Source of the DNA: Heterodontus francisci
Lineage: Eukaryota
Assembly (NCBI RefSeq): GCF_036365525.1
Contig: NC_090400.1
Coordinates: 47,389,138 to 47,453,137 of the forward strand
DNA: 64,000 bases
Direction of reading: 5' to 3'
Under the pieces are notes generated by a model. That model made no database searches. It worked only from the letters and a program-made list of their open reading frames with translations, and was not told the DNA's origin. A program made the position numbers and the translations under genes. This document shows positions 4,958-61,663 of this stretch, piece after piece (the stretch's first letter is position 1; every line of letters starts with the position of its first letter).

Positions 4958-5137
4958 GAATGGTGCAGGCACAGATAGGACACAAGGTGCCAAACGGAAA
5001 GTTGGACTGCATGTTTCTAGAAGAGAAACAAATTGAAGGGACTGAAGTATTTGGGCCAACAACCATCAAGAGGAAGGCATTACTGCTGTTTGCGGATATT
5101 AATACAAATGAGGAAGCCATTATTTTTAAAGTTCAAG
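4958..5137 (+). CDS. TAPBPL: Tapasin-like exon: end of signal peptide and first half of N-terminal domain
   Basis: ttttaag|GAATGGTG ... GTTCAAG|gtattg; MVQAQIGHKVPNGKLDCMFLEEKQIEGTEVFGPTTIKRKALLLFADINTNEEAIIFKVQ. Confidence 0.85.
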
Positions 5138-8100
5138 GTATTGTGAAAAGATCAAGCACATCAGGAAATTAATTCTCTCTGGCGAGCACCTCCTATACTC
5201 AGGATAATCATTCAAGATGGTTTGGGAAGTTCTTTTGTGTTCCTAAAATTACTTATAATAGAAAATCCTGCCTTGTTTATTTTATTACACCAGCAGCTCT
5301 CCCATGGCACTGCTCATGGCAATTTAGACGATCCACTAATTTCTAAGTATAGGAGCAATATATGATGTAAAACACAATGGGGGTCATTTTAACCTAACCC
5401 ATGCAATGGAAAATTGATGAAATGGAGTGCAACGCTGGTTGAAGCTGGGAAAGTGACGGTGGTTTTGAATTGCTGGTGGTGACCTGGATCCAAATAGTAA
5501 TTGGTTCTTGTCTACTGAATGGCTAAGATATTGTGATTGTTGAGTAGCATATAAAAGGTGTGAAACTATGCAGATAAAAATGCATTGTCACTTCCATAGG
5601 ATACTGTATTTAATTGAATACTGCAGGAAGCTGTTTATATTTTAAAAATTGGATTACCATCAGACTTTGCCTGCCCAAGATCCTATTTGCAAGCAAGAAA
5701 AAAGCAATCTCCTCCCCCCCTCCAAATGGTAACAAACCATTATTTGCTTTTGCCAGGGAAGGAAGTGGTGGAAATTTCTGAGGATGGAGATTCCAACACC
5801 CTAATGGGTTTTAAAAAAAAACTGCATGGTTTTACAGTCCAATAGTTCTTAGTACTGCGATTTGATCAGATGTTGGTGTCTCACAAGGTAACACAAGGCT
5901 TACACTGTATTCATCAGATTCAAGTACAACGGACCGAGATTGAAAACTGCAGAATTCATCAATCAGAGGATATTGTCTCCCCAAAGACATTTCCCGCAGG
6001 AGGATAAGTGACCCATTATGGAGTTTGCTTATTAGATTTAATATTGACACTCAGTAGTATTTATCAAATTCTATTAGCGCTTCACTTTCCATTTAATTAT
6101 AACTAAACATTATTAGTTGCTTTATTTAGCCTGCTAAAACTTTGCCCCATATTTGAATATTCTGCCAATCCAAAGAGAATGATATTCTGATTAGCTCCTG
6201 CAAAAAAGGGTAGTTGTTTGTTCTCAAGTCACATGAAGGACAGATTATCACAGGCTCTGTTAGGTGTATATATGTGTCAGCTGTGGCTTAGTGGCTGCCC
6301 TCTTGTCTCTGAGTCAGTAGGTTATCAGTTCCTGTCCTACTCCAAAGACTTAAACATAAAATCCAGGCTGATAGTTCAGTTCCCTGTTCAGAGTATGCTG
6401 CACTGTTGGAAGTACTGTCTTTCCAATTGGGTGTTTAAACTCAGGTGGATGTAAAAGATGTCATGGCGCTATTTTGAAGGAGAGCCAGGGAGCTATCCCT
6501 GGGTGTTCTGGCCAATATTTAGCCCTCAATGAATCTCACAAAAACAGATGATCTGCTCATTATCCCGTTGCTGTTTGTGGGAGGTTGCTGTGCACAAATT
6601 GGCTGCTGCATTTCAACATTACAACAGTGACTACATGTCAGAAGTACTTCATTGGCTGAAAAATACTTTGGGATGTCCTGAGGTTGTGAAGTGTGCTATA
6701 ACAATACATTTCTTTCTGGATCATAGAGGACAAGGTATGGCTAAGAATTCATTTGAGAGAGAAAACAGTTCTGTACAACATCTGAAGTTGTAACATGCAC
6801 ACATTTTTGCTCAAGGCTTGTGGGGACAGGACTAATTTACTCAGAAAGGTTGACTTGTTTCAAACAAAAGTTGTGTTTAATTACCAGAAATGAGTTTGAT
6901 GAAGTCCTTTAGGAGAGACAGAGTTCATTGGTTGTTTTGCTCCCTAAGTCAGTCTTTCAAAAATAGGTGGTTAAATGGAATTGGTAATTGATTAAGAGAC
7001 ATAGATTTTCAGTTGTTTTTCTCTAAATCACAAGGTACAACAAAAAGATTTGCAGGATCCTACAACTTAGGAGGATCAGAGAGATGTGCATGTTTAGTAT
7101 TGAGAACCTTTATGTGAGTAATCAGCATCATTTTCTATTAACTTGCTGTTTAATTAGTATGTAAATCTTTCCCTTCATTTACAGAGTCTTCATTAGACAT
7201 ATTCCAGTATGTGAATGAGAAACCTGACAAATTGGATTGTGAAATTAGCAGGCATTCTACTTTTGGCATCCACGTGCCCTGGCCGCACCAGGGTAATGAC
7301 ACCAGTGAGGATATATGGTTCACAGTGACTATAAAGCACTTAAATAGGTTCACTGTAACCAGCTTCATGAGGAAGATAAAAGCACCTGATAGCCAGAAGG
7401 CTGAGAACAGTGAAGCAAAAACTGATGATGAAGATTTATCCATTGGTGATACAGACACTATGTTAGTTCAAGGTAATGTTCTAATGCTGACCAGCAATCT
7501 ATATGTTCAGAGAGAGTGCTGTGAGGTGTATTGTGGACAATATTTGCCTTTCATGGGAGTGTTAAAAATGTCTCTATTCCAATAATAATACATCTGAACA
7601 AAAAAACCCATATGGCATAAACAGCATATGACTGCATTTGTAAAATGAGCTAATGAGGAAAATACAATTTTAAATGGTTTTACCTGAGTTACTAATAGTA
7701 ATTAACTGTTGTGAAATACAAGCTAATGGCTGTTTCTTTTTACTTGTTAGTGAGCTACATTATCTACACTGGCACCCCATTGATTAGAACCAAATTGAAG
7801 CAAGACCTGATTCTGGACTGTGGCTACAAAATTGATCACAGTACAGACTTTAACATTGACTGGAGGTATCAACACAAAGGGACCAAGAAGAAATTGTTCG
7901 CCTACAATGGACGACGTCAGCAAGTTGAACACATCGAGGAAGGAGTTGAAATATTCATGGACCAGATCAAGAATGGAAATGCTTCCCTCCGCATAAGAAA
8001 TGTTCGCATTAAAGATGAGGGATCCTACACCTGTTCCGTATATGTCCCTCCGCTCTTTGGAACACACACCATCGAGTTGGAGGTTATGGGTAAGATACCG

Positions 8101-11100
8101 ATGCTGATGAATTAATCGGCTTTGAAAACAAATGGGTCAGGGGAAATGACAATTTGAATTTATTTGGGTAATGGAACAGTGTGAAAATTAGCAGAAAACT
8201 GAAAGGACAATTTTGATCTTGCTGTCTCCTGTAATCAGCCAAGGCCTCTGCTCCAGAGGTAGTGTCTGGATTAATTAGTTCAATCTACATTCAGTTGAAT
8301 ATGTGCATTTCAACATCAGAAAAAGGTGTACAGTGCAGGCGGTTAAGATTAGTGCAAACACCTGACCAAATCATCTTTAATCTTCATCCTGACTTTCAGC
8401 AATCAGTGTGATTGGAATCCAGCTCAGCTGAGGACAAGGTTGCTGCCATTTAAGTAGAGGGGCTGAATAAGTTCCAGGGTGTTTTACAGCTATAACTGAG
8501 ATGGCCCTTATGAGCAGTACAATGCCAGATCAGAGGGTAGGTGTAAAACTGAGTCCCTTAGGGATCTGGATTTGGCTCCTTGTGTTTTTTCTAATCTACA
8601 TAAATGATTTGGAAACCTGACATCAGATTTGCTGATCTCACTAAAGTAAGGAGAACAGTTGAGACAGAGGATTCATCAAAAAAGTTTGCAGAATTGGCTA
8701 TGCAGCTGGCAAATTCAATTTAGAAATTCACAGCTCATACAATACTTTCGAATTGTAGTCACTGCAAATGCGGCAGCCAATCAGCACACTGCAAGGTCCC
8801 AAATCGCTAATGATATAAGTGACCAGATCCTCAGCATTTAGTGGTGTTGGTTGATAGATAAATGTTGTCTAGGACAACAGGTAAGCTTCCCTGCTATTCC
8901 TCAAATGCTTACTTACATCTGAGAAGGCAGACAGGGTCCTCTGTTTAATGTATCATGCAAAAGACAGCACCTCTGATACTGCAGCACTCCCTAACTACTG
9001 CACAAAACGTCATCCTCAACTACAGCTGAAGTGTCCAAAGAGTGGCTTACACTGATGACTGCTTGACTCGGAGGTAGGAGTTCTACTACTGAGCCAAGGT
9101 TTGCACTTAAAATGAAATTTAGCGATGATATATTGGTTAGACATTGATCGATAACATGTCCATCATGGGGTAAGTTCTCTGAATCTGCAGCACGAGCTGG
9201 AAGCAACGCTTGAAGGGAGCACAGCTCCCCACTGGGAATACAAGATCAGTGAATTTACCCTGACAAATTTGCAATGAATGGAATGGAACAGGGGAGAGGG
9301 ACTAACTGGATAGTTCTTCCAAAGAGCTGCCAAAAGTACGATGGGCAGAATGACGACCTCCTGCCCTGCATGGTTCTATGAATTGGCAAAAGGCAACTTT
9401 GAATATGATGAGTCTATCGTTATTCTATGTTTGAACAATATAGTGAAGCAATTAACAAAGCAAGTAGAGTGCTGTGATATACACCCAGAACAGTAGAGTG
9501 CAAGGAGCTGAATTTCACAGGCAGGTCTTCTAGAGTTATATCTGGAATGGAACAGGGTGGGGTGGGGAAATTCCCATCTAGCCACTTTGGTGATTATTTT
9601 ACCTGGGATTACATCACCACTGCTAACCTGCACAAACTAATGGAGTATATGAATTTAACAGGTGTCAAACAGTGATTTTGGATGAAGGGCTGCTGAAAGG
9701 GTCTGTGTTGACATACCACGAGAGATTAAAGGTGCTTTTGGATTTGTTGAGTTCAGATCTTGGGACTACAGTGTTTGTGCTCTGCCATTAACATTGCTAA
9801 AACAGGCCCCTTTAATCCTACCTGCAAGTTTGTGGACCCATGTGGATATGGGCTTGGCCTGTTATTCTGCTGGAGGGGTAAATGAGCCAATTTTAGCAAT
9901 GTAAACCCAGGGAGGCGACACAGGGATGCTACTGTTCCATTATGCAAACTGAACAAGTGCTGAGCCTTCGCAGATGGGTGTTACAGTCAGAGTCCTGCCA
10001 CTTTGGAACATGTTCCTTGCCGATACATTAAACACTTGCTCTTCTCACCAGCTCTTTTAAGTGTACATATGTGTATGATTGTATGGGAAAAATATTACTA
10101 TCAAAAAAACTATGTAGGAAAAATTATTTAAAGGGGAATTTTTTTAGATTGGTAGTTCCCATATTGGTTCCTTGTTGCTACAGCGACATGTTCACACTGG
10201 GGCCCATATGGAAGAATATATTATTACAATTTGATTCCAGTTAAAGAGATTGAAGGCTGCAAATCCTAAGCATCAGAAGGCCTATAAAACCTGAATGTAT
10301 AACCAGTTGTCATGGCTTGTTATGACAAAGGCTTTTGTTTTCTTTGTAGAGTCACCCACTGTCTTAATGAACCCTGATTCACTTTCCCTTAAGGAAGGGG
10401 ATGAACAGAAGCTGGAATGTGAAGCAGGGCATTATTACCCACTTGATGTAGCAGTAAAGTGGATGCGGCAGGAGGGCGAGGGGCATATGCTGCCCGTCTA
10501 CATGACCAATGTCGTCTTCTCACCCCACAAGCGGAACATGGATGGCACCTACAGTGTGACCAGTTACTTCAGGTTCACAGCCTCCCTTAGAGACAATGGT
10601 ATTCTGTACACATGTCGAGTTGAGCATGCCAGCTTGGAGAAGCCAATCAAACGTTATATCCGAGTAAATGTAGAAGGTAAGCAATGAGGAAAATTCTATG
10701 ATACTGTTCATTTAAAATTGTTCCAAAGTGTGTCACAGAGTCAATATGCATTAAAATTGGATGCCTAAGGATGTGTTTAATCATACGCAGGTGGAGGGCG
10801 TTAGTTTAGGTCTTACTTGATTTATATCTAAGGAGACACAAACTGAGTGAAGGTTTGAGTGAGGAGTTGCATATTTGTAATCTTTTTTACTTTTGTAAAA
10901 TAAATGCAAGATTAAGTAAAGATTGGTTCCAGCACCATCCTTCAGAAACAAACTTTCTAGAGTAGAACATTCACGTCTTTTATTTTCGCTCTCAGGTTAA
11001 TATTGAAGCAGTGACAATTCAGTAAAAATGTCTATTAATTCACCTTATGTACCAATTTTGGAATCAATCTGGTTCCAGCAATTGCCCAAAGATCCACTTT

Positions 11101-14100
11101 TTGTCTAGGTTTTCTGTCAGTCAAAGGCTGTTGTTTTCTCATAATATGCTTCAGTCAGGAGGAAGGAGCTGAGCAAACTGAATTCTGCACAAATTTGGAA
11201 CGTTTCACTCTAACCTTAATTGAATAGAAATGACCATGCCAGTTACTCTCCTTAACTTCGAATTCAGAAAATTTGCAAAGGATGCTAAGTTCTTGTAATA
11301 CTTGGTATCCTTTTGAAAATGTCATGGAGAGTGTAAAAATTATAGTAACAAAAGTTCTTGTAATACTTTTGTTACTATCAGTTGTACATTCTCTGATATT
11401 GCCATTTCACGGTTCATTTCCCAAATTCATCAGCAGCCTCTCCTTTTTAGCCTGCTTAGGTATGGTATTCTGGGCTCTACATTCTCATGGTTATTTCCAA
11501 TGTCACTGCAAGATCTTCTGCCAGGAAAGGATAGGTCAGTCTTTCACCCTTCTCCCCACAATGGAGGACTTCAGCATTGCCAAGTGAACTAAGCTGCTGA
11601 GAACTGCCCTTGGTGTGAGCCAGTGTCAATCAGTGCCTGCTTGAGGTCATAACCGGTCAGTGGGAATCCACATCTCAAACAGTGCAACCCATCACAATGT
11701 TGATTTTTGTTCAAACTGATCTTAGTGCCCCTTATCGTCCTCAATATTATAAAGGGAGACCTTGGCACTCTCTGTCCTCCCTGGGTGCACGTTTAAAACT
11801 GCTGGACAAGTGCAACCTTGATACAGATTTTCACCCCTATTCAGTGGTTAAACTGAGCTCTGGAATAGTTTTCTGACTTGGAGCCAACCTCTCCCCACCT
11901 TCCCTGACTAGTGTGTCCCTTTCCAATTTCCTGCTCATCCCCACAAGACTCTTGAGTCTCCTCCAAACCCTGGGTCTGTTCCATGACTAGTCACTCACTC
12001 TATGTAAGAATTTCCTCCAAGTCTCAGGCCTCTCCTGCTGCCAGTCTCCCACTCCTCTTCATGGGAGTGCCCAGCCTTTTCTGACTTCCTCTTACTTGAG
12101 TATTTAAATAATGGAACTATCAACATTGATATTAACATATAACACAGATGAATGCAATTCAGTAAAGAGATAAAGAGCAAAGAAAGAATTTGCATTTATA
12201 TAGCGCCTTCCCCCACCTCCGGTCATCTCAAAGAACTTCACCAACAATGAAGTACTTTTGACCTGTAATTGCTGCTGTCATGTAGGAAACGTAGAAGCTA
12301 ATTTGTGCGTAGCAAGATCCCACTAACAGCAATGTGATAATGACCAGATTATCTGTTTTAATGGTGTTGGTTGAGGGATAAATCTTGACCAGACACTGGG
12401 GAAGCTCCCCTGTTCTTTGAATAGTGCTGTGGGATCTATTATGCCCACTTGAGAGGGCAGATGGGGCATCAGTTTACCATCTCATTTGAAAGATAACACC
12501 CCCAACAGTCCAGCACTCCCTCAGCACTGCACTGACCATCTGCCTAGGTTGTGTGCTCAGTTCTCTGAAGTGAACTGACGATCTTCAGATTCAGAGGCAA
12601 AAGAGCCAAGGCTAACACTGGTAGTAATTAAAGGAGCTGACAGGGGATATCGGAAGTGGGTTATAGTGAGAGCGTAAGAAATGGGAGCATGTGCACGTTA
12701 TAAGGTGCATCGAATCTGCTCCACAATTCACTAAGATCATGGCTGAACTTTTACATCAACTCCACTTTCCCGCCTGATCCCCATATTCCTTGATTCCCTG
12801 AGGAAAGCTGGAAAGCAATGCAGAAAGAGTATAGGAGTAAAACGGGAAATACCATTTATGAATAGGTTTCATCTGCTGGTTTACGCAAGGCATGTCACAC
12901 AGGAAAAGGGCCAAAGAATTGAGGAGAAGTCTGCGCAATTTGTTGGGTGCTGTACAAGTGAAAACCTTGGGGATCTAGGGTAAAATATGGAGACTGGACA
13001 TGACACTGAATAAATAGTAGGGAACAAAGATGAGTGGAGTATCCCAGAGTGCTTGGATCCTTGTCTTGTATCAACATAAATGACCTTGAAGAAGTTTACT
13101 GTGGATTTCTGCTTTCAATGTTCAGACAACTCTAAGATAAAGCAAAAAGGGCAGAGGATGCAGTTAACTCTGAAGAAGCATTTAAATCACCTTCGCAGCT
13201 AAGTAAACACATTAAATTTAATACTGTCAAATAAAGCATATACCATATTGGGTGAGACCACACCTAGAGTACTGTGTACAGTTTTGGTCTCCTTATTTAA
13301 GAAGGGATATACTTGCATTGGAGACAGTTCAGAGAAGGTTCACGAGGTTGATTGCTGGGATGAAGGAGTTGTCTTATGAGGAAAGGTTAAGCAGTTTGGG
13401 CCTATACTCATTGGAGTTTAGAAGAATGAGAGGGAATTTTATTGAAACATATAAGATTCTGAGGACACTTGACAGGGTAGATGCTGAGAGGATGTTTCCC
13501 TTCGTGGGGGAATATAGAACTAGGGGGCACAGTTTCCGAATAACAGGTCTACCATTTAAGATGGAAATGAGGAGAAATTTCTTCTCTCAGAGGGTCATTA
13601 ATCTTTGGAATTCTCTACCCCAGAGAGCATTGGATGCTGGGCCATTGGATATATTCAAAGTTGAATTGGACAGATTTTTGATTTACAAGGCAGTCAAGAA
13701 TTATTGGGGGCAGGCAGAAAATTGGAGTTGAGGCCACAATCAGATCAGCCATGATTTTATTGAATGGTGCAGCAGACTCTAAGGGCCAAAATGGCCTACT
13801 CCTGCTCCTATTTCTTATGTTCTTATGTGAAAAGTGAGTGATCAACCATCTGTTTTTGGTGGTGTTGGTTTGAAGGATAAAGGTTGGCCAGGACATTCTG
13901 CTCTCCCAAATTTCCTTTTTAGGGGAGTTCCGTTTTCCAATGTACACAGTGACATGTAACAGAGGTCTCACAATATTGGCACTGATGATTTTTTTTCTTT
14001 TAATTCCACAGCTGGACCTCAGATACTTCTGTTTATCTTAATTTTAATTATGATTCTACTTTTCTGTACTGTTGTGATCATCCTACTGATTTACTTGAAA

Positions 14101-17100
14101 AAAAGTGAGTATTTGCTGTTACAAGTTCTGTGCAGTTAGTCTAGCTGATGCTGTCTCTTGACCTTCACAATAATCACCTTTACTATTAAACTCTGTATAA
14201 ACACTTTTCAATAACATTTTAGTTTGGAAATTCAGACCAGAGAGGAACTTTCATAGAATTACATAGAATATGCAGCACAGGAACAGGCCATTCAGCCCAA
14301 CTAGTCTGAGCTGGTGTTTCTATTCCACGCAAGTCTCCTCCCATTCCATCTACTTCATCTCAATCTTTCAGCATATCTTTCTATTCCCTTTTCTCTCATG
14401 TACTCATCTAGTTTCCTTTTGATAGCATCTAAGCTATATTATGTCAGGGATACAGAGGTCCTACAAACTCAACCATGAGCAAAATCAATGTAGATTTATA
14501 AATGTGTCTTGGCTTGTAGTTTTGAACAAGATATTGGGAAACTTGTTATGAAGTTATGAGTTTCACAAGATTTGTAAATCTAGGGCTGCCATGTCAAGAT
14601 TAGTTTTCTAAGAAATTTTCTATTTCTTAACAAATAGCTTTATTAGGGCCAGATGGAATTTTAGTTGTTTAACTGGTAATGATGCAGATCATCTTTACAA
14701 ATGAAACACCAAAAAGAGTCAAAGACATTTTAGAATTACAAAAATGAGATGTTTTGTGTGTTTGCAAAAACACAGAGCCATCAGAACATTGAATGATCTG
14801 TTTGAAAGAGCAATATCAAGTTTTATTGGAATGCTGTGTCAGTGATTGGCTTTTATTGAGGGCACTGGTGGTTGTTGAAGATTATTTGGGTTGATTGCTT
14901 AAGAGGAGGTTGTGATGGGGTGCAACAGACTGTGTGAAAGGGGCTAGTGGTGATGTGATTATGTTAGAGCAGCTTTAGCTGGTATTTTCATTATAGAATG
15001 ATAGCAGTAACAGTTTCCTGGATGGTATGACTAGGAGGTCCTTATACCCTTGCTACCAAGTGGACTTTGGTGCAGGGAACCCAGCAGGTTAAAAACACCA
15101 GTATCATCATCAACATCCTTTACTATAGTGAAATATCTAAAGGCACTTCACAGCTAGGGATGGAAGGACATTGTGCAGCAGTTTGGGAAAACAGGGATGA
15201 TGACTGAAGATGTAGGTGAAGAGGTACATTTTCAGGGACTTTTTAAAGTGTGGAGAAATCGAGCAAGATTGAGGAGTTTAGGAAGAGGTCAGGGGTGTGA
15301 TGGTTGAATTCTCTGCCACTGATGCTGGGTTGGAAGGAGTGGGATGCATCGTAGATCAGTAGTAGATCAATATTGGAAGAGTACAGGATGTGAGATGGGA
15401 CATGGGGCTGGAGGAATTTGCAGAGGCAGAATGGGACAGAGTCAGGGAGTATTTAGCAAGCAAGGATTTTGAAATCTGGGTATGTTGGCAAGGACAGCAC
15501 CTTAGTACCAGAAAGGATCAGTGCACTGAGAAGTGAAACATAGAGGTGACAAAGATATGGATGAGAGTTTCAACACCATTGGAGGTGAGGTAGTGACAGA
15601 GGCAGGCATTGTTACAAAGGTGGAAATGGGCAGCCTTGTTGATGGATATGATTTGTGAATTGAAGCTCAGCTCAAGATGCCTACATCAGCCATCTAATAA
15701 TGTCCAATTTATTTTCAAGTCTAAATACTCAGTGGGAGTGCAGCAGTTAAACAAAAGACTCGCGGAGCCAGATTTTTAGCTTACTCACTTAAAAGAAGAA
15801 TAGAAAGGTGCTTTGACTGATATCAGCAGTGAAATTCTGTTTGCTACATGATGTGGTTGTGCTGATATGAGTTCTTAATGACTCTCTGTCCTTTCCTTTG
15901 CAGTCATGGAAAGAAGCAAGGTAAGAGAATTATAATTTGAGTTTTATTAGTGTCACAAAGTCTCACATAGAAAACCTGTAAGAAACTGATAAAGGTCATT
16001 TTAGTCAGATATAATGTGTAGAGATCACTTAATATATTGGGGAATGTAGCTGTGTTCTTTTTACCTCTGACGGTCTTGCTGTTGCATGGTTCCACGAGCA
16101 TCGGTCAACCTCCAAAATCCAACTGGTCATTCATTCCGAATTGACTAATCTGAGCTGGAGCATGAGTAGGGTTCTACAGTATTCCTGGTCTAGCAAAGGC
16201 TAAAGGGTTCAACATTCCAAGGGATCCCACAGAGTGGTAAATGGGTACCACCAGCAGTAGTGCAGTTAGGATGGACCATTAGAACATGAGTAGCCCCTTA
16301 AGCCTATTCTGTCATTCAGTGAGATCATGTGTCCTAACTTCCATCACCCACCTTGGCTCCATATCGCATCATATCCTTGGCTAACAAGAATTTATCCATT
16401 TCAGATTTTAAATTATTAATTGACTAGCATCTACTGCTTTTTGTGGGACGGATTTCCACACTTCTGCTACCCTTTTTATGTGAAGAAGTGTTTCTGAACT
16501 TCTCTCCTGAATGGCTTGGCTCTGATTTTAAGGTTATGTCCCCTTGTCATAGACTCGCCCACCAGCAGAAAAAGTTTCCCTCTATCTAACCTACCACTTC
16601 CTTTCAAAATCCTAAAAACCTCAATCAAATCACCCCTTAATCGTCTTTATTCTGGGAAATACCAGCCCAGTTTATGTAACCTCACCTCATAATTGAACGC
16701 TTGGAGCTCTGGTGTCATTCTGCTGAATCTGCACTGCACTCTTTCCTTGCAATTCTAGGATATGGTGCCCACAACATTCTGGATGTGAGATAACCAGGGC
16801 TTTGTATAGATGTACCAAACTTCCTCCCCTTTATATTCTAGCCTTCTGGATATAAAGGCTAACATTCCATTATCTTACTTGATTATTTTTTATGCCTACA
16901 TTTTAGTGATCTGTGTACATGGTGTCTAAATCTCTTTGTATCGCCACTGTTATGAGCTTTCTGCCATTTAAAAAATACTCGGTTCTGTCCTTCATCAGAG
17001 TTTTGCATAATGGGTTTTGGAAAGCATGATGCGTTTTTGGAAGGCTTTTAATGGCTAGGAAAAAGTAATAAGATAGTGAGATTTATCAAGGGCATTAAGG

Positions 17101-17722
17101 GAGTAGGACTTGGGTCACTGATGGGTCTGCCACTGTTAGTGGGGTGGAAGAAGATGCAACAGGGGGCCAGAGTCAGAGGCCTGAGGGGAACGTGCTGGGC
17201 TGCAGGAATGGAGTTAATTGCAGAGATGGGGGTTTGCTGAGTCCATGATTAGATGAGGAGCTTTTGAAAATCAATGCTTTGGGAATCAGAAAACCATTGG
17301 GCGTTAGTGAAGATGGAGATGATTGTTGCAAGGGACTTAATGCAGGCCAAACTGTGGGTAGTGAAACTTTGAGTTGTAGATGAAATGCAGGAAACCAGTG
17401 AAGAGGACTCTTGAGAGTTTGAGTCTGGAGCGGTTAAGGGTTTCCACAATGATGAGGTAGAGGAGGAGTTAGGTGTTGCTGTGGGGGTGGAAGTAGGCGA
17501 TCTTATTGATAGGTAATACTTAGAGTTTGAAATTCAGCTCAGGTTGAATCAGCAATTTAAACCACGTCATCAAAATGAATATGATTTAATAAAGTTTTTA
17601 ATTCCCTCATCGTTTAACTTTGCTTTTGTGAACAGCTCTGCATTCATTAATACCACCATGTGCTGTTATAGTATTTTCCAATGTTCTTCCTTTTATTTCT
17701 TCAACAGAAGAAGCCATACTGA
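4958..17722 (+). CDS. TAPBPL: Tapasin-family protein (tapasin-related / tapasin-like), spliced gene of ~419 aa without its first (signal peptide) exon
   Basis: Seven exons with canonical AG/GT sites and consistent phases (1,1,1,1,1,0) give N-domain + IgV + IgC1 + TM + tail ...IMERSKKKPY*. Tapasin-family motifs: LDCxFxEE..RxALLL, CEISR, WRYQHKG, GNASL, DEGSYTC, YYPLDV, HKRNMDGTYS, YTCRVEHASL. Symbol is family-level; orthology to human TAPBPL is not established. Confidence 0.9.
6273..6716 (+). mobile_element. tRNA-headed Deu-domain SINE (SacSINE1-like) with L2-type tail
   Basis: Head gtgtcagctgtggcttagtgg, core ctattttgaagg...ctggccaatatt...tgctgtgcacaaattggctgc; many copies in the window. Confidence 0.7.
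7185..7472 (+). CDS. TAPBPL: Tapasin-like exon: second half of N-terminal domain
   Basis: tttacag|AGTCTTCA ... GTTCAAG|gtaatg; LDCEISRHSTFGIHVPWP...IWFTVTIKH. Confidence 0.9.
7751..8089 (+). CDS. TAPBPL: Tapasin-like exon: IgV-set domain
   Basis: ttgttag|TGAGCTAC ... GTTATGG|gtaaga; LILDCGY..DWRYQHKG..GNASLRI..DEGSYTCSV. Confidence 0.93.
8760..9100 (-). mobile_element. Deu-domain SINE copy
   Basis: Reverse-complement match to the 6273-6716 element. Confidence 0.6.
10350..10676 (+). CDS. TAPBPL: Tapasin-like exon: IgC1-set domain
   Basis: tttgtag|AGTCACCC ... GTAGAAG|gtaagc; LECEAGHYYPLDVAVKW..DGTYSVTS..YTCRVEHASL. Confidence 0.93.
12180..12620 (-). mobile_element. Deu-domain SINE copy
   Basis: Reverse-complement match to the 6273-6716 element, including tail (ttgcatttatatagcgcctt). 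Confidence 0.7.
13240..13830 (+). mobile_element. CR1 LINE 3' fragment
   Basis: ORF 13252-13731 (RPHLEYCVQFWSP..LYSLEFRRMRG..RNFFSQRVINLWNSLP) and tail ctcctatttcttatgttcttatg. Confidence 0.9.
14012..14104 (+). CDS. TAPBPL: Tapasin-like exon: transmembrane segment
   Basis: ttccacag|CTGGACCT ... AAAAAAA|gtgagt; AGPQILLFILILIMILLFCTVVIILLIYLKK; phase 1-1. Not in the ORF track. Confidence 0.88.
15100..15680 (-). mobile_element. Old L2 LINE 3' fragment
   Basis: Degenerate reverse-complement similarity to the L2 at 55440-56108. Confidence 0.5.
15904..15920 (+). CDS. TAPBPL: Tapasin-like 17-nt cytoplasmic micro-exon (IMERSK)
   Basis: Strong polypyrimidine tract ctctctgtcctttcctttgcag|TCATGGAAAGAAGCAAG|gtaaga; converts phase 1 to phase 0. 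Confidence 0.75.
16280..16990 (-). mobile_element. Degenerate CR1 LINE 3' fragment
   Basis: Antisense CR1 C-terminal coding sequence and tail (atcaccccttaat, ttatgtccccttgt). Confidence 0.7.
17708..17722 (+). CDS. TAPBPL: Tapasin-like last coding exon (KKPY*); exon continues to donor at 17744
   Basis: tttcttcaacag|AAG AAG CCA TAC TGA ... CAGC|gtaagt; gives a C-terminal KKXX motif. Confidence 0.8.
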   Translation, partial: KKPY

Positions 17723-53100: not shown

Positions 53101-56100
53101 CAGATTCAGCACTGAAATCGCTGCAATGGCGTGAACTTAGTATTTAAAATGTTTTTTTTTGTGCTTTTCCACTTGTCTCTTTTATTGCCCCTCCCTAAAT
53201 CCCATCTGTATTTCAAAAACTTTATTTTGCTTCCTATACACGATTTGAATGTAATTTGTATTTCTGTTTTCGACTCTGAGGGCAGGATCATCCCGTGGAG
53301 TTCAGGACCCCGATATTAGGACCAAATGGGGGTCCTGAGCCCACACCTGCTGGGAGCCAGACCGCAGGTGTTATTTTCCCAGAGCCACCCTCCTAATTAG
53401 CCGCATCCGAGCTCGCTGTCCAATTAAGGACGGTGGGTTAGCTCCCAATTACAGGGCTGCCAGCTCTAAAGCCTCAGCAGCCCTGCCAAGGGAGGTGGGC
53501 GCTGCTGAGGCAGGTAGGAGAACGTGAGGGCACCTCAAAATGGAGGAACCCTTGAAGGGCTGAAAATAATTAATTTCCTTTAGAGGGGCCAAGCAGGCAG
53601 GCCCCTCCGATCGGAGGGGGAAACACCTCCGGTGGCAGCGCTTGGGGGATGGAGTCTCGGGCTCTGCCGGGCCCCCGGACTGCCGCAGGGAGGCTGCCTC
53701 TTTTGAGCTGGCGGTCTCTGCACGCGGTGGGCAAAATGCCAGTGAGTGTGAATAATGGGCGAATTGGGGCCTTAAATATACAGATTGGTTGCTCACCGCC
53801 CTTCAGCGGGTAGCTGATTGACATTCCTTCCTGCCCCAGGAAACCTTCTGGCTCCCCCACCCCAGACCTCCAGACCCAGGGCTGGGGATATTCTGCCCCG
53901 AGTGTCTCAGTGAGGATACTTCAATGCGATTGGTTGAAGAGCCTCCCTGTTGTTTGCCCTGCTCACGGATGCCACAGATCCTCTGTAGACAGTGCAGCAC
54001 TGAAACAGACACTGGATTTGTGGAAATCTCCACTGACAAGCCCATGATGAGCATGTGGGCAGTTGTACGGAGAGGAAAATACGAGTCAATATATTATTTT
54101 CCGGGCTTCCCTTCTGATCCTGGCTTCATTCCTCCTCTACATACATGCATTTTCCATTTGGGTATCCTTGGATAGAGGTCTGGAGCAAGGAACTCTGCAT
54201 CATTTTATATTTTGCTGTCTCTAATACAAAGGTACTGAGGCCAATTGTGCTGGACTGTTGCCTTGTTTAAGATTAGTTAACTCAACGCAAGCCAGGAGTA
54301 GAATCTGGGACTTATTTGGCCTGTATGACTCTTATTAACAACCTTTTACTCCATGTGTTCTGGTAAAAGTAACTTGTAGACATCTGGAGTATGCAGGTGA
54401 GCCCAAAAGCTTTGTTACACTGACACCCTGCCAAGGGTAGGTTAACCTCGCCTATCTGTTCGAGCAGCTCTCCCCCTGGCAGAACCTGCATATACTCACT
54501 GTGCTGGTCTCATATTCCTCCAATACTTCATTCTCGCCAGCCGTGCTGCTGAAGCTACTCGTACTTGACGATGAACGGGAGATGTTGCCCTTTCCATTCT
54601 CCTTGAGTTTGTGGTAGGTCCTGGTGAAGAATGATGAGTAATGAGCATGAGAAGCCAGGGCTATGCCACGAGGTACTGCCTCCGTCACTTGGTAAGATAG
54701 CAGGAGACTACCATCAACAGTGGCTACAAATAGGATTTGAGGGCAAGTGTACGATAGGACTGACCAGGTCTCAGAGAGAATGGGGACTGCAAGATGGTGT
54801 ATTAGCATGGTACGTGGCTGGAGCACGAACAGATTGGAAGGACATGGTCTAGCGCCCATGATTCTGGTGCTTGGGGAAGGTATTGAGAGGAAGCAAGCTG
54901 TAAGATTATTAGGTTACTAGAAGTTACTAAACAGAGTACTAATTGTTAAAATACAGCAATTATAAAGAAGACAAGTTCATAAGCAACTTTTGGCCACGTT
55001 TCCTAGTATGATACATGTTGCCAGAAATACAATTTGAAATAATAAGAGTTACTGAAACTGTCGAGACAGGTATGTGCTTGTGCTTCTTCTGGTGTTTAAT
55101 GCTACTGAGGTTACCTGTCTTTGTTGGGGCCCATTTCAGGAGAGCTTGGGTTGGAGGACGTTTCCCATTTGATGTCCGGTGAGATCTGGCCACTCTCAGG
55201 GGTCCTCGACAAACTCGACAGACTTTCACTGCCGAAGAAAAATGAAAGTTAACACATCAGGGTCACCTTTAGAGAATGTGCTAATTATTCTCCTTTTGCA
55301 TTTGTGCCTAAATGTTGTGCTGACTCCACTGACAAACTTCACAGTTCTCCTGTGCCTCCTGGTGCAGTGGAATCAGCCCCATTTATAGCTCAGGGGTAGG
55401 TCCAAACCAATGATATGTTTCACAGTTGCCTAGCTTCAACCACACCAGCATGAGTCCAGTTTTTGCTTTGGCCTATTTCCACCTCCGTAACATTGCTTGC
55501 CTTCACCCTGTTTCAGCTCTTCTGCTGCTGAAACCCTCATTCATGCCTTTGTTACCTCTAGACTTGACTATTCCAATGTGCTCCTGGCTGGGCTCCCACT
55601 TTTGACTCTTGCCAAACTTGAGGTCATCCAAATCTCTCACCAAGTCCCATTCCCCTATCACCCCTGTGCTCCCTGACTTCCATTGGCTCCTGGTCAAGCA
55701 ACGCCTTGATTTTAAAATTCTCATCCTTCCTTTCAAATCCCTCCATGGTCTCAACCTCTCCCTATCTCTGTATAATCTCCTCCAGCCCCACAACCCTCAA
55801 AGATATCTGCTCTCCTCTAATTCTGGCATCTGATGCATCCCTGATTTTAATTGCTCCACCATTGGTGGCCGTGCTTTCAGTTGCCCAAACTCTGGAATAC
55901 CCTACCTAAACCTCTCTGCCTCTGTACCTCACTTTCCTCCTTTCAGACACTCCTTAAAACCTACCTCTTTGACCAAGCTTTTGGTCATCTGACCTAATAT
56001 CTCCTTTTCTGGCTCACTCATACTTTGTTTTATAATGCTCCTGTGAAGCAGCTTGCGACGTTTTATAGTTTTATAAATATATAAATAAATACAAGTTGTT

Positions 56101-59100
56101 GTTGTTGATTGTGAGTTAACCTATAGAAATGCTGCTAGGGTGGGAGGAGGCTCTTGGGAAGCATAAATATCATCATCGACCAGGTGGGCTGAATGGCCAG
56201 TTTCTGTGGTTGAAAAATTCTCTGCATTTCTCTCTAACCTCAGTCTTGCACTAACCACAACCAGTGAGAATTGAACTTTACAAATGGAATTGAGGGGTTC
56301 TGAAGATCACCAGCGTCTAGGAACCCTTTACGTGCAAAGTAGGATAGCTATCACAAAGGAGGAGAGTCTAATTGTGGGAAGGGACGCTGGCTGGAGCTCA
56401 GCAATGTGATCATTCTGCATTCTCTGATCATTAAAACTAACCACACGTCTTTGACAGAGTGAAACGCATTATTTCCAGCACACTCTGAATCTTCCGTTAA
56501 ACCTGTGTATCAACAACAACTTGCATTTATATGGCACCTTTAACCTTATAAAACATCCCAAGGCGCTTTACAGGAAATGTGACACAGAATTGTTACAGCC
56601 ATTCGGCCCATCATGTTTGCACTGGTTGACCGAATGAGTAATTCACCCAATGCCATTCTCCCACCTTCTCCCCATAACCCTGCACTTTCTTCCTTTTCAG
56701 ATAACAGTCACATAAGGAGATATTAGGACGGGTGACCACAAGCTTGGTTAAAGAGGTAGGTTTGAAGGAGCGTCTTAAAGGAGGAGAGGGAGGTGGGGAG
56801 GCGGAGAGGTTTAAAGAGGGAATTCCAGAGCTTAGGGTCTTGTAACCTGAAGGCATGGCAGCTAATGGCGAGGTGAAAGAAATCGAGATGCGCAAGAGCC
56901 GGAGTTGGAGGAGTTCCGAGATCTTGGAAGATTGTTTGACGGGAGGTGGTTACAGATATAGGAATGGGCGAAACCATTAGAGGGATTTGAAAATAAGGAT
57001 GATCATTTTATAACTGGCATTACAGACCAGTACATCAACAAAAGCCCCACGAAAGTCTACTAGTATCTCTGAAACACTGCATTGTGCTGTGCTCTGGTTC
57101 TTTTGCTTATCTTGATTCAACAGCTGGCTGCCTTAATCAGTCATTTTTAGGCAGAATGATCAAACATCCAATTTAATTAAGGTAGATCTACAGCTTAATT
57201 AAACAGCCATTTAACTATAATCATCATCTGTTTTAAAAAAAAGCAGGTCTCTAATATAAATCGCTAAAAATAAATCCTTAATGTGCAGCTAGCAACTGCC
57301 TTTAAAGAGTCAGGACCACTCTTATGGGATTGCAAATTCTCCAGCATTGTCATGTGGGGTTTCCAGGAATTAAAGAGGAAGCTCCTGGACACTGTTGTGA
57401 GCATGGGAGAAAAAAATATAGTGGCATTAAATTAACTGTGTGTATTATTTTCTCATTTTCATTGCTTATTAGTTATGAAAAATACTGGAGTTGGGAAAGA
57501 AGGGCTATTTGACTGGGTGAGCCAGTTGGAGGGGACTGATCATTTGATGAAACCTCCAGGAAAATGTCCAACCAGAGTTGGCAACTTCAGTTCCGAATCA
57601 TCGATATGGTTTGGGTTTATGTACCAAGTACTTCGTCACTAGCTCCTAGTCATAGAATGATACAGTCTTAAAGTCATTATGGCACAGAAGGAGGCTATTC
57701 ATCCCATCGAGTCCCTGCCGGCTCGCTGTAAAGCAATCTGGTCAGCCCCATTCCCCTGCTCGATCCTCATAGCCCTGCAAGTTTTTTCCCTCAATTTCCC
57801 ATCCAATTTCCTTTTGAAATCATTAATCATCTCCACTTTCATCACCCTTGCAGGCAGCAAGTTCCAGGTTATTACCATTCGCTGCGTAAAAACGCTCTTC
57901 CTCACATTCCCCCTGTATCTCTTGCCCAAAATCTTAAATCAGTGTCCCCTAGTCCTTCTACGATCAGCTAATGGGTACAGCGGCACTTTGTTTCTCAACT
58001 GAGAAACCTAGTTAAACATCATAGCACAAGACACAGTAAGCATATATAATCTGTTTTAACATTACTACTGAGGTAGGGTTACCAGCTCTAGTTGGACGGT
58101 GGTGAAGCAGGCTGGGGGTGCCAGTCATTTTAACTTTGGTGTCAAATGGGCAATGTCAGATTGGCCGTCTGTTGCCCAATTTTCTGTTCCATCAACTTCA
58201 AATTTGGGCGAGTCGCATAACGGGCGACTGATCCAACAATGCCCACTTACCGCTCTTGCCAAAAGTTGAAATAACCTCCCGTGGTGGTTTTTAAAATCAG
58301 CACCAAAAAAGCATATGGGCTGCTTGGGTTTATAAATAGAGGAACAGAACATAGAGGCAAAGAGATCATTGCTCGAACTTTATAACTAGACTTAGCTACA
58401 GTGCTGTAAAAATGGTATGGTAATTATCATGGGGGATTTTAATCTACATGTAGATTGGTCGAACCAGCTCAGTCAGGGTAGCCTTGAGGAGGAGTTCGTT
58501 GAGTGTTTCCGTGATAGTTTTCTTGAACAGTATGTAATGGAACCGACGAGGGAGCAAGCTATCCTAGATCTAGTCCTGTGTAATGAGACAGGAATAATTA
58601 ATGACCTCATAGTTAGGGATCCTCTTGGAAGGAGTGATCACAGTATGGTTGAATTTAAAATACAGATGGAGAGTGTGAAGATAAAATCCAATACCAGGGT
58701 CCTGCGCTTGAACAAGGGAGACTACAATAGAATGAAGGAGCACTTGGCTAAAGTAGACTGGAAACAAAGATTTTATGGTGGGACAGTTGACGAGCAGTGG
58801 AGGACTTTCAAAGCAATTTTTCAAAGTGCTCAGCAAAAGTATATTCCAGTGAAAAGGAAGGACTGGAAGAAAAGGGGTAATCTGCCATGGGTGTCTAAGG
58901 AAATAAGGGAGGCTATCAAATTGAAAGAGAAGGCATACAAAGTGGCCAAAAACAGCATGAAACTAGAAGATTGGGAAAACTTTAAAGGTCAACAGAAAGC
59001 CACAAAAAGAGCTATAAAGAAAAGTAAGATAGAAAATGAGAAAAAACTAGCACAGAATATAAAGACTGATAGCAAAAGTTTCTATAAATATATAAAACGA

Positions 59101-61663
59101 AAAAGAGTGGCTAAAGTAAACGTTGGTCCTTTAGAGGATGAGAAGGGGAATTTAGTTATGGGATATGATGAAATGGCCGAGGCATTGAACGGGTATTTTG
59201 TATCGGTCTTCACAGTGGAGGACATTAATAACATGCCAGTAATTGACAAAGAGACGAACGTAGGTGAGGACCTGGAAACAATCATTATTACGGAAGAGGT
59301 AGTGTTGGGCAAGCTAATGGAGCTAAGGATTGATAAGTCTCCTGGCCCTGATGGAATGCATCCCAGGGTACTAAAAGAGATGGCGGGAGAAATAGTAGGT
59401 GCACTGGTGGTAATTTTCCAAAATTCGCTGGACTCTGGGGTAGTCCCAGCAGATTGGAAAACAGCAGATGTGACGCCACTGTTTAAAAAGGGAGGTAGAC
59501 AAAAGATGGGGAATTATAGACCGGTTAGCTTAACCTCTGTAGTGGGGAAGATGCTTGAGTCTATTATCAAGGAAGAAATAGCAGGGCATCTCGATAGAAA
59601 TTGTCCCGTTGGGCAGACGCAGCATGGGTTCACGAAGGGCAGGTCATGCTTGACAAATCTTTTGGAATTCTATGATGACATTACGAGCAAGGTGGACAAT
59701 GGGGACCCAGTGGATGTGGTGTACCTAGATTTCCAAAAGGCCTTCGACAAGGTGCCGCACAAGAGGCTGCTGCATAAGATAAGGATGCATGGCGTTAGGG
59801 GTAAAGTATTAGCATGGATAGAGGATTGGTTGACTAACAGGAAGCAGAGAGTGGGGATAAATGAGTGCTATTCTGGGTGGCAATCAGTCACTAGTGGTGT
59901 GCCTCAGGGATCGGTGTTGGGACCGCAATTATTTACAATTTATATAGATGATTTGGAGTTGGGGACCACATGTAGGGTGTCAAAGTTTGCAGATGACACT
60001 AAGATGAGTGGCAGAGCAAAGTGTGCAGATGACTGTGAAACTTTGCAGAGGAACATAGATACATTGAGTGAGTGGGCAAAGGTCTGGCAGATGGAATACA
60101 ATGTTAATAAATGTGAAGTCATTCATTTCGGTAGGAGTAACAGTAAAAAGGATTATTACTTGAATGGTAAAAAGTTGCAGCATGCTGCTATGCAGAGGGA
60201 CCTGGGTGTCCTTGTGCATGAATTGCAGAAGGTTGGTCTGCAGGTACAGCAAGTAATTAGGAAGGCAAATGGAATTTTGTCCTTCATTGCTAAAGGGATT
60301 GAGTTTAAAAGCAGAGAGGTTATGTTGCAGCTGTATAAGGTACTGGTGAGGCCGCACCTGGAGTACTGTGTGCAGTTTTGGTCTCCTTACTTGAGAAAGG
60401 ATGTACTGGCACTTGAGGGGGTGCAGAGGAGGTTCACTAGGTTGATTCCGGAGTTGAGGGGGTTGGCTTATGAGGAGAGACTGAGTAGATTGGGATTATA
60501 TTCATTGGAATTCAGAAGAATGAGGGGGGATCTTATAGAAACATATAAAATTATGAAGGGAATAGATAAGATACAAGTAGAGAGGATGTTTCCACTGGCA
60601 GGTGAAGCTAGGACAAGAGGGCATAGCCTCAAGATTAGAGGGAGCAGATTTAGGACTGAATTAAGAAGGAACTTCTTCACCCAGAGGGTTGTTAATCTAT
60701 GGAATTCCTTGCCCAGTGAAGTAGTTGACACTTCTTCAGTAAACGTTTTTAAAGCTGAGGTAGATATCTTTTTGAACAATAAAGGAATTAAGGGATACGG
60801 TGAGAGCGCGGGTAAGTGGATCTGAGTCCACGAAAAGATCAGCCATGATCTTATTGAATGGTGGAACAGGCTTGAGGGGCCGGACGGCCTACTCCTGCTC
60901 CTAGTTCTTATTATGACAATTCTGGGCACCACACTTCAGGAAAGACGCAAAGACATTAGAAAGGATACAGAGGAGCTTTACTAGGATGTTACCAAGGATG
61001 AGGGAGGGAGATTGAAAAATTTCAGATTGCTCTCCTTGGAACAGAGAAGGTTAAGAGGTGACCTAATAAAGATTATCAAGATGAGACATTTTGAGCAAGT
61101 AAATAGGGAATAAATAGTCCCTCTGGCAAGTGGGACAATGACTAGAGGGCATGAACTTAAAACCATCGGAGAAATATCTACAGGAGAGATGAGGTGAAAT
61201 CTTTTCACTCAGAGAGTTTTTGGAATCTGGAAGGCTGTACCAGAACAGGTGGTGGAAGCTAATTCCATAAATAATTTTCAAAGGGAGTTGGACAGGTACT
61301 TGAGGATTAGGAACTTACAGAGTTACCATCAAAAAGCAGGGATGTGGGACTATACACAACTCCTCTTTCAAAGAGCTAGTACAGACACGATGGGCCAAAT
61401 GGCCCCCTTCTATGATTCTTCTATGATTCTAACTTTTACACATATCATTACAGACGTCAACATCCTTGAAAAGGGTAAAAGGGAAGGTGAGGTAAACTGG
61501 GATGCAATGACTAAGTAATGGAAGAAAGACAAGGCAACAGGGTGTTCCAGAGGTCACACACTTACCAACGTGGCCTACTATCCAATTGACTATCTGAGCT
61601 TGTATGGGGTCGAGGGAAGAGAGCTGACCTTCTTTTCACTGGGCTCTTCAGAAGTTTTGCTTG
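47104..61663 (-). CDS. RAP1GAP2: Rap1 GTPase-activating protein 2-like, C-terminal coding exons (5' part of gene is outside the window)
   Basis: Six exons splice in frame to QAKLLKSPVKRRSALFPRPH...ETSSNPSSPEMGPNKDR...KLKENG..ISRSSSSTSSFSSTAGE...SQPSTASP...SPTD...SPRTTLKFRFEKL...GH*, matching the recalled RAP1GAP2 C-terminus. Could be a close paralogue. Confidence 0.88.
47221..47560 (+). mobile_element. Penelope-like element 3' fragment
   Basis: Reverse-complement match to 31400-31720; decayed hammerhead remnant gaaacgttaactg. Confidence 0.7.
47745..48085 (+). mobile_element. Deu-domain SINE copy
   Basis: Match to 6273-6716 and 30630-30985. Confidence 0.7.
48867..48943 (-). CDS. RAP1GAP2: RAP1GAP2-like exon DMTKCKTSPRTTLKFRFEKLHHSSNP
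   Basis: ttttctccacag|ACATG ... AACCCA|gtaagt; phase 1-0. Confidence 0.9.
49374..50127. mobile_element. GC-rich MITE, PIF/Harbinger-like
   Basis: GGGCTGAATTTT ... AAAATCCAACCG termini; flanks cca/ccg fit a 3-bp TSD with CpG decay. Confidence 0.6.
50490..50905 (-). mobile_element. SINE related to the head and tail of the 21620-24784 LINE
   Basis: Same head+tail fusion as 46700-47020, more diverged. Confidence 0.65.
51210..51570 (-). mobile_element. 3' fragment of the 21620-24784 LINE family
   Basis: Matches 21625-22020 with internal deletions. Confidence 0.75.
51702..52290. mobile_element. GC-rich MITE, PIF/Harbinger-like; right end unclear
   Basis: Starts GGGCTGGATTTT; shares cttaagtggg.caattaa and ctct.attgg.cggcagct motifs with 18868-19467. 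Confidence 0.55.
52732..52837 (-). CDS. RAP1GAP2: RAP1GAP2-like exon VSQPSTASPSRQDVFLYSNENQSGSNQVSSCKSPT
   Basis: ctgtccacacag|GTTAGT ... CCCACAG|gtctgc; phase 0-1. Confidence 0.88.
53280..53898. mobile_element. GC-rich MITE, PIF/Harbinger-like
   Basis: GGGCAGGATCATCCC ... GGGATATTCTGCCC termini; flanks tga/cga fit a 3-bp TSD with CpG decay. Confidence 0.6.
54500..54620 (-). CDS. RAP1GAP2: RAP1GAP2-like exon TYHKLKENGKGNISRSSSSTSSFSSTAGENEVLEEYETST
   Basis: ttcttcaccag|GACC ... AGCACA|gtgagt; phase 2-0. Confidence 0.92.
55115..55228 (-). CDS. RAP1GAP2: RAP1GAP2-like exon ESLSSLSRTPESGQISPDIKWETSSNPSSPEMGPNKD
   Basis: tcttcggcag|TGAAAG ... GACAG|gtaac; phase 2-2. Confidence 0.9.
55440..56108 (+). 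mobile_element. L2 LINE 3' fragment
   Basis: Encodes AAETLIHAFVTSRLDYSN-like and HWLLVKQRLDFKIL L2 motifs; (GTT)n tail. Confidence 0.85.
56510..57015 (-). mobile_element. L2 LINE 3' fragment with a small CR1-tail insert
   Basis: Reverse-complement of the 55700-56108 region; peptide PKLWNSL..LSSFKTLLQTYLF. Confidence 0.75.
57650..57975 (-). mobile_element. CR1 LINE 3' fragment
   Basis: RKSVFTQRMVITWNLLP peptide and CR1 tail. Confidence 0.75.
58405..60912 (+). mobile_element. Young 5'-truncated CR1 LINE
   Basis: Uninterrupted ORF2 remnant plus complete 3' tail (gggccggacggcctactcctgctcctagttctta); nested in an older CR1. Confidence 0.95.
58417..60825 (+). CDS. CR1 ORF2 (partial APE endonuclease + reverse transcriptase), 802 aa open frame
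   Basis: MGDFN, ILDLVL, SDH (APE); [42 protein letters not shown] (RT); N-terminal half of APE missing. Confidence 0.9.
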   Translation: MVIIMGDFNLHVDWSNQLSQGSLEEEFVECFRDSFLEQYVMEPTREQAILDLVLCNETGIINDLIVRDPLGRSDHSMVEFKIQMESVKIKSNTRVLRLNKGDYNRMKEHLAKVDWKQRFYGGTVDEQWRTFKAIFQSAQQKYIPVKRKDWKKRGNLPWVSKEIREAIKLKEKAYKVAKNSMKLEDWENFKGQQKATKRAIKKSKIENEKKLAQNIKTDSKSFYKYIKRKRVAKVNVGPLEDEKGNLVMGYDEMAEALNGYFVSVFTVEDINNMPVIDKETNVGEDLETIIITEEVVLGKLMELRIDKSPGPDGMHPRVLKEMAGEIVGALVVIFQNSLDSGVVPADWKTADVTPLFKKGGRQKMGNYRPVSLTSVVGKMLESIIKEEIAGHLDRNCPVGQTQHGFTKGRSCLTNLLEFYDDITSKVDNGDPVDVVYLDFQKAFDKVPHKRLLHKIRMHGVRGKVLAWIEDWLTNRKQRVGINECYSGWQSVTSGVPQGSVLGPQLFTIYIDDLELGTTCRVSKFADDTKMSGRAKCADDCETLQRNIDTLSEWAKVWQMEYNVNKCEVIHFGRSNSKKDYYLNGKKLQHAAMQRDLGVLVHELQKVGLQVQQVIRKANGILSFIAKGIEFKSREVMLQLYKVLVRPHLEYCVQFWSPYLRKDVLALEGVQRRFTRLIPELRGLAYEERLSRLGLYSLEFRRMRGDLIETYKIMKGIDKIQVERMFPLAGEARTRGHSLKIRGSRFRTELRRNFFTQRVVNLWNSLPSEVVDTSSVNVFKAEVDIFLNNKGIKGYGESAGKWI
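60915..61430 (+). mobile_element. Older CR1 3' fragment (its 5' part lies at ~58310-58405)
   Basis: QFWAPHFRKD..LERIQRSFTRML continues the LLGFINRG..E.LY frame interrupted at ~58405. Confidence 0.75.
61566..61663 (-). CDS. RAP1GAP2: RAP1GAP2-like exon QAKLLKSPVKRRSALFPRPHTSSDSQLDSRPR
   Basis: ttttctttggcag|CAA ... CGTTG|gtaag; alternative in-frame acceptor would start the exon at 61687. Confidence 0.85.

Follow-up and report, generated by a model that had tools for sequence, protein, structure and literature searches.

The TAPBPL orthologue of the shark Heterodontus francisci, a member of the third lineage of the tapasin family

Introduction

To which branch of the tapasin family does a gene belong that seems to combine hallmarks of tapasin (TAPBP) and of TAPBPR, and what might its product do for class I molecules of the major histocompatibility complex (MHC)? 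The question is raised by a locus of the shark Heterodontus francisci. The stretch of DNA analysed here ('the window') comprises 64,000 nucleotides of contig NC_090400.1, positions 47,389,138 to 47,453,137 (G000:C30:47389138-47453137 in our numbering), in a genome of 6.0 Gb. A sequence-only reading of the window had described a tapasin-family gene with such a mosaic of hallmarks and had put it forward as a candidate member of a third tapasin-like lineage. This lineage, TAPBPL, was defined in 2018 by Grimholt, from gar to opossum and with no cartilaginous fish (PMC5824609). We use the name TAPBPL for Grimholt's lineage; the human gene symbol TAPBPL denotes TAPBPR. Our literature searches found no description of a cartilaginous-fish TAPBPL, with subscription papers, one thesis, figures and bioRxiv supplements lying outside their reach. 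The shark gene is already annotated automatically in RefSeq, and database names mix the lineages of the family: the methods of PMC9956121 list opossum XP_007485846.1, which is Grimholt's TAPBPL, among the TAPBPR orthologues. The name 'tapbpl' of PMC10751288 denotes the gene on MHCpara-12 and therefore TAPBPR.

Results

To place the window protein, we used a set of 52 near-full-length proteins out of ~280 (21 TAPBPL, 18 TAPBP and 13 TAPBPR rows), which leaves out fragments, near-duplicates and multi-Ig proteins and is without human or other placental tapasin. In the IQ-TREE analysis these proteins form three clades, each supported at 100/100. The window protein falls outside TAPBP and TAPBPR and inside the TAPBPL clade, in the company of sharks, rays, chimaera, coelacanth, lungfish, sturgeon, teleosts, amphibians, turtles, one bird and wombat; one member, Xenopus laevis P0242, agrees on visual comparison with the frog TAPBPL sequence in Grimholt's paper. 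The approximately unbiased (AU) test rejects the grouping of the window protein with TAPBPR (p 7e-45) and with TAPBP (p 4e-5). The same clades are recovered at 99-100 both in a tree of the IgV and IgC domains (42 family rows after 10 were dropped, with 8 B7-like outgroups) and in a mixture-model tree of these domains with 7 outgroups; the B7-like rows are resolved as the outgroup at 100/97. It is thus near certain that the window gene is the shark orthologue of TAPBPL, and the assignment to a third lineage made by the sequence-only reading is borne out. We also considered whether TAPBPL branched off first within the family. The LG tree favours this order (92/85), but neither alternative order is rejected by the AU test (p 0.45 each); as the mixture model is undecided too, we did not adopt it.

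The other two members of the family are present in the same genome. Searches with the IgV and the IgC domain both rank the same two other loci next:

G000:C29:2415434-2437693: shark TAPBP (P0176), recognised by genome search and sequence marks
G000:C1032:903639-912923: shark TAPBPR (P0210/P0293), with the motif LLHADC (Cys94) and without a di-lysine tail

In shark TAPBP the membrane motif reads LYGILKLL and the tail KEKSH; both IgV cysteines are present, and the Cys95 position is occupied by Thr. Identity to the window protein is 31.6% for shark TAPBP and 25.1% for shark TAPBPR. The window protein is neither nested within one of these two clades nor the only family member in the genome, and the presence of separate TAPBP, TAPBPR and TAPBPL genes in one shark implies that all three lineages predate the split between sharks and bony fishes. 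Genome searches with four of the window exons gave one place of full identity each (the counts being lower bounds), and shark TAPBPL appears to be single-copy. Shark TAPBP has an extra cysteine in the motif WFC that is common to Chiloscyllium, and shark TAPBPR lies on a 2.15-Mb contig, its introns filled with tandem repeats.

The C29 contig, which holds TAPBP, carries 59 of the 64 MHC class I exon matches found in the genome, the nearest of them lying about 30 Mb or more from TAPBP; none of the 64 is on C30, the contig of TAPBPL. A class I array at G000:C29:57.4-62.8 Mb contains at least seven near-identical genes, and further copies are found on small contigs.

The TAPBPL gene itself is made up of eight coding exons, seven of them in the window (Cys and sequon numbers refer to P0001, the full-length protein):

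G000:C30:47387737-47387782 (L016:8600-8645), outside the window, + strand: exon 1, signal peptide, placed by identity with the RefSeq protein
4958..5137, + strand: exon 2, end of the signal peptide and first half of the N-domain with Cys33 and the long 'editing' loop, supported by splice sites and contigs
7185..7472, + strand: exon 3, second half of the N-domain with Cys94, which pairs with Cys33, and the sequon N113
7751..8089, + strand: exon 4, IgV domain (Pfam V-set 186-278) with Cys195-Cys266 and the sequon N248
10350..10676, + strand: exon 5, IgC1 domain (Pfam C1-set 292-380) with Cys308-Cys373
14012..14104, + strand: exon 6, uncharged membrane helix
15904..15920, + strand: exon 7, cytoplasmic micro-exon of 17 nt, the letters of which sit between the joint 14104-17706 in one run
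17708..17722, + strand: exon 8, coding part, KKPY and stop, a tail of the di-lysine ER-retrieval type (ER, endoplasmic reticulum)

With AG/GT ends and consistent phase, the seven exons in the window join into a spliced frame that is open for 419 codons before the stop. The sequence-only reading had taken these 419 residues for the whole protein; its seven exons and their frame hold, and what it missed is the first coding exon, 46 nt that code for MFLEIFLLHFWILTA and lie 1.4 kb upstream of the window. The search for a signal-peptide exon within the window yielded no convincing candidate. The full-length protein has 434 amino acids and equals P0001 (XP_067866611.1, RefSeq 'tapasin-like', Heterodontus francisci). 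The in-window splice product is identical to the C-terminal part of this entry in every letter, and the junction of exons 1 and 2 rests on the same identity. Contigs from all four runs examined (two samples, two studies) join exons 2-5 without introns, and one run connects exon 6 to exon 8 via the micro-exon; the runs carry no RNA record and were taken as RNA by guess, their contigs being free of introns. The gene is confirmed as real and spliced, the agreement being far beyond chance.

The protein has the architecture of the tapasin family: an N-domain followed by IgV, IgC1 and a membrane helix, with the tapasin fold in the predicted model. The features that had been picked out from the letters are all there, namely LDCGY and YTCSV in the IgV domain, only two cysteines in the N-domain, an uncharged membrane helix of 21 residues and the tail KKKPY. 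Their interpretation as a mosaic of tapasin and TAPBPR hallmarks is not supported. The IgV cysteine pair occurs in 52/52 non-placental family rows, including 18/18 TAPBP and 13/13 TAPBPR, and in Grimholt's alignment it is human tapasin alone that is without it, chicken and fish tapasin having the pair (PMC5824609). At the Cys95 column, 17/18 non-mammalian TAPBP, shark TAPBP included, have Thr or Ser, and Grimholt likewise describes C95 as not conserved in tapasin (PMC5824609). As the IgV pair is family-wide and Cys95 rare, half of the four hallmarks go back to the ancestor of the family, and the 'mosaic' is a human-centred artefact. For the same reason the missing Cys95, which had been read as a sign of independence from ERp57, carries no particular information on that point for this gene. 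In the skink tapasin P0202 (Lerista edwardsae) the position of human Cys95 is taken by a Cys, and mammals are thus not the sole bearers of the ERp57 cysteine.

What does distinguish TAPBPL in the alignment is a different set of characters. A Lys or Arg in the membrane helix is found in 16/18 TAPBP vs 0/21 TAPBPL, and the Cys94 of TAPBPR in 13/13 TAPBPR vs 0/21 TAPBPL. The column of tapasin Q261 and TAPBPR Q272 holds Gln in all 31 other rows (18/18 TAPBP, 13/13 TAPBPR) vs 1/21 TAPBPL. The protein ends in KPY in 20/21 TAPBPL rows; the tail is KKKPY in 15 of the 17 cartilaginous-fish-type proteins closest to P0001, and KKKKPY in gar TAPBPL. Judged by these counts, the lineage is marked by a membrane helix free of charge, a tail of the form K-K/x-K-P-Y, the absence of the TAPBPR Cys94 and the loss of Q261/Q272. 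Exon 3 carries the lineage motif IHVPWP...WFTVTIKH. The lineage cysteine of Grimholt, 11 residues after Cys95, is Val in the shark and Cys in 5/21 clade rows; since this cysteine (WFTC) is also missing in the frog, turtle and opossum TAPBPL of Grimholt's own alignment (PMC5824609), it does not define membership.

We then compared the surface through which TAPBPR grips class I molecules. The TN6 mutant of TAPBPR, which carries E205K, R207E, Q209S and Q272S, fails to bind HLA-A2 (PMC9956121). At the four mutated columns shark TAPBPL has D, R, Q and T, i.e. three of the four are kept; exon 4 encodes this surface as D208-W-R210-Y-Q212, with T276 at the Q261/Q272 position. Within the TAPBPL clade the acidic residue is present in 13/14 fish rows and 0/7 tetrapod rows, and the Arg in 12/14 and 0/7, respectively. 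Shark TAPBPL also has a sequon of the N233 type, an N-domain loop of 24 positions from Cys to Ala (vs 19-26 in TAPBP) and the IgC S-H-[K/R] strand, which is kept in sharks and which we use as a strand only, not as the equivalent of H334/H335 (Grimholt's alignment).

The AlphaFold model of the shark protein, computed from an alignment of 13 rows, has a predicted local distance difference test (pLDDT) score of 82.7 and a predicted template modelling (pTM) score of 0.71. In a Foldseek search with this model, tapasin and TAPBPR chains are the 13 best among the matches listed (~400 columns, E 2.5e-25 to 2.9e-20), with a TM-score by target of 0.61-0.74 over the whole ectodomain against tapasin and TAPBPR structures. 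A complex prediction of the N-domain and IgV with a class I gene from C29, the alpha1 and alpha2 exons of which were given separately, scored 0.05; it was run without alignments, the fold of the partner was uncertain, and the score weighs neither for nor against binding.

Upstream of the gene, 70 bases before the ATG, we found a site GAAACCGAAAGT (L016:8530-8541, G000:C30:47387667) that resembles an interferon-stimulated response element (ISRE) or interferon regulatory factor element (IRF-E). GAAACCGAAAGT is the sole match in 284 kb to the IRF-E consensus. A looser site of this type lies at -129 of the shark tapasin gene. In salmon, interferon-gamma raises the TAPBPL genes by 1.5-3 log2 (PMC7573153).

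Pfam recognises VPS53 and EXO5 on the upstream side of TAPBPL and a Rap-GAP gene on the downstream side, none of which is an MHC gene:

G000:C30:47309574-47309678: VPS53 exon, upstream
G000:C30:47466617-47486487: Rap-GAP exons, downstream

EXO5 is a multi-exon gene on the same strand (G000:C30:47377367-47383916), its last candidate exon ~4 kb before TAPBPL exon 1. Two transcript-type contigs reach 500-640 bases upstream of exon 2; together with the closeness of EXO5 this makes a long 5' untranslated region or read-through possible. Among 13 candidate neighbour exons searched with Pfam, six gave no hit and one more gave only an unrelated sub-threshold match. We take the exon at 47.367 Mb to resemble LIAT1/C17orf97 and the Rap-GAP gene to resemble RAP1GAP2, and the block of neighbours presumably corresponds to human 17p13.3, which is not known as an MHC paralogon. 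Such a placement, if right, would fit poorly with a straightforward origin of TAPBPL in the second genome duplication. Elsewhere in the window, exon-like stretches at 54500-54721 and 55117-55227 (- strand), which have no Pfam match, are possibly 3' exons of the Rap-GAP gene. An open reverse-transcriptase frame of 809 codons at 58396-60825, presumably of a long interspersed nuclear element (LINE), stands among many decayed copies, and the remainder of the window is mostly repeats.

Discussion

The uncertainty that attaches to shark TAPBPL concerns its function, not its lineage. The reading that we favour, with a probability of about 0.62, is that of an interferon-inducible, ER-retrieved class I chaperone or peptide editor that would grip peptide-receptive class I/beta2m outside the TAP-based peptide-loading complex. 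The signal peptide and the single membrane helix would place the body, with its three domains, in the lumen of the ER. Di-lysine tails direct COPI retrieval, and the KKKPY tail would return the protein to the ER by this route. In tapasin, a salt bridge of the membrane Lys (K428) is necessary for TAP binding (PMC4661472); as TAPBPL has no membrane Lys or Arg, it would form no bridge of this kind and probably does not dock to TAP. ER retrieval and TAP-independence can both reasonably be inferred for the shark protein. The cradle formed by the N-domain and IgV, with its three of four TN6-type residues, could hold the class I alpha2-1 helix; the long N-domain loop would then cover the groove, and IgC would be in contact with alpha3 and beta2m. 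Calreticulin could be recruited through the sequon that corresponds to N233 of tapasin, and the upstream ISRE-like site would raise TAPBPL along with the rest of the pathway. The niche so defined would be TAPBPR-like editing that is kept in the ER and acts on class I molecules off the TAP complex.

Several observations weigh against this picture. The fourth TN6 residue, Gln in all TAPBP and TAPBPR, is Gln in only 1/21 TAPBPL (Thr in the shark), and E and R are lost in 7/7 tetrapod TAPBPL, so that the constraint on the canonical class I surface is weaker in this lineage or of another kind. The N-domain loop is poorly modelled (pLDDT 57 at residues 41-50), and by sequence alone the Ig part matches B7-H6 and CD276 better than TAPBPR. 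The IRF-E pattern was picked after the site had been seen, and 9/200 shuffles match it somewhere in 10 kb. The names of the clades depend on database names, Grimholt's alignment and MHC linkage, in a set without placental tapasin. Finally, no function is reported for any TAPBPL (PMC7573153, PMC9372762).

The altered surface may instead reflect the client: TAPBPL could serve non-classical class I or W-category molecules. The Q261/Q272 column, invariant in TAPBP and TAPBPR and not in TAPBPL, points this way, as do the many class I loci of the genome (64 exon matches), and the lack of a predicted TAP link would suit TAP-independent ligands. We nevertheless consider such a specialisation unlikely, since sharks keep the IgC S-H-[K/R] strand as well as most of the TN6 positions (three of four), and since TAPBPL survives in birds and marsupials whereas W genes are reported only from sharks, bony fish and salamanders (PMC9586880). 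Somewhat less probable still is a protein that retains or disposes of empty class I molecules in ER quality control, competes with tapasin or has a role unrelated to MHC. The strong conserved ER tail, the missing TAP anchor, the lack of a third N-domain cysteine for ERp57 or UGT1, the decayed class I surface of tetrapods and the location of the gene off the MHC contig would all fit; the long N-domain loop, kept at 24 positions vs 19-26 in TAPBP, and the interferon induction in salmon, which parallels that of the loading machinery (PMC7573153), do not. That the gene is a diverged copy of TAPBPR or tapasin, or a true recombinant mosaic, we regard as very improbable: this idea finds backing only when human tapasin and human TAPBPR are taken as the reference, and in the RefSeq names 'tapasin-like' and 'tapasin-related protein-like', and it conflicts with the AU rejections, with the existence of TAPBP and TAPBPR as separate genes, with the distribution of Cys94 (13/13 TAPBPR, 0/21 TAPBPL) and with the ancestral nature of the 'mosaic' traits.

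Regardless of function, the shark gene moves the age of the third lineage from the bony-vertebrate ancestor, the limit set by Grimholt, to the ancestor of jawed vertebrates, brings all three tapasin-family genes together in one shark genome and shows the IgV disulfide and the missing Cys95 to be ancestral traits. The gain is modest in that the gene was already auto-annotated. Shark TAPBPL is a good test case, having more of the MHC-binding face than the tetrapod copies and matched TAPBP, TAPBPR and class I genes in the same genome. One may speculate, with little confidence, that the jawed-vertebrate ancestor had three class I chaperones, of which TAPBPL was a dedicated, interferon-induced, ER-resident, TAP-free editor with non-classical class I as a client set of its own, encoded outside the MHC paralogons, best preserved in sharks, stripped of its MHC-gripping face in tetrapods and gone in placentals.

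Compared with known systems, shark TAPBPL is closest to the TAPBPL of Grimholt, with which it shares the clade (100/100), six core cysteines, the lack of a membrane lysine, the KPY tail and the N233-type sequon, at 35-49% identity to the Xenopus, sturgeon and coelacanth members. The ER-retention tail that is reported for 'some' of Grimholt's TAPBPL is present in the shark as KKKPY, and unlike tetrapod TAPBPL the shark protein keeps more of the TN6 surface. With tapasin it has in common the fold, a di-lysine tail and the N233-type sequon, and with shark TAPBP specifically the eight coding exons, including two small tail exons; it differs from tapasin in lacking the membrane Lys/Arg, in a shorter loop at the Cys95 site, in the replacement of Q261 and in its position off the MHC contig. 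The fold, the absence of the TAP-binding lysine and the long N-domain loop are shared with TAPBPR, whereas Cys94 (the UGT1 link) is missing, Q272 is replaced and a conserved ER-retrieval tail is present. Lastly, the IgV+IgC1 part resembles B7-H6 (NCR3LG1) and other V+C1 proteins of the B7 type, its best sequence matches among solved structures; unlike shark TAPBPL, these proteins have no tapasin N-domain.

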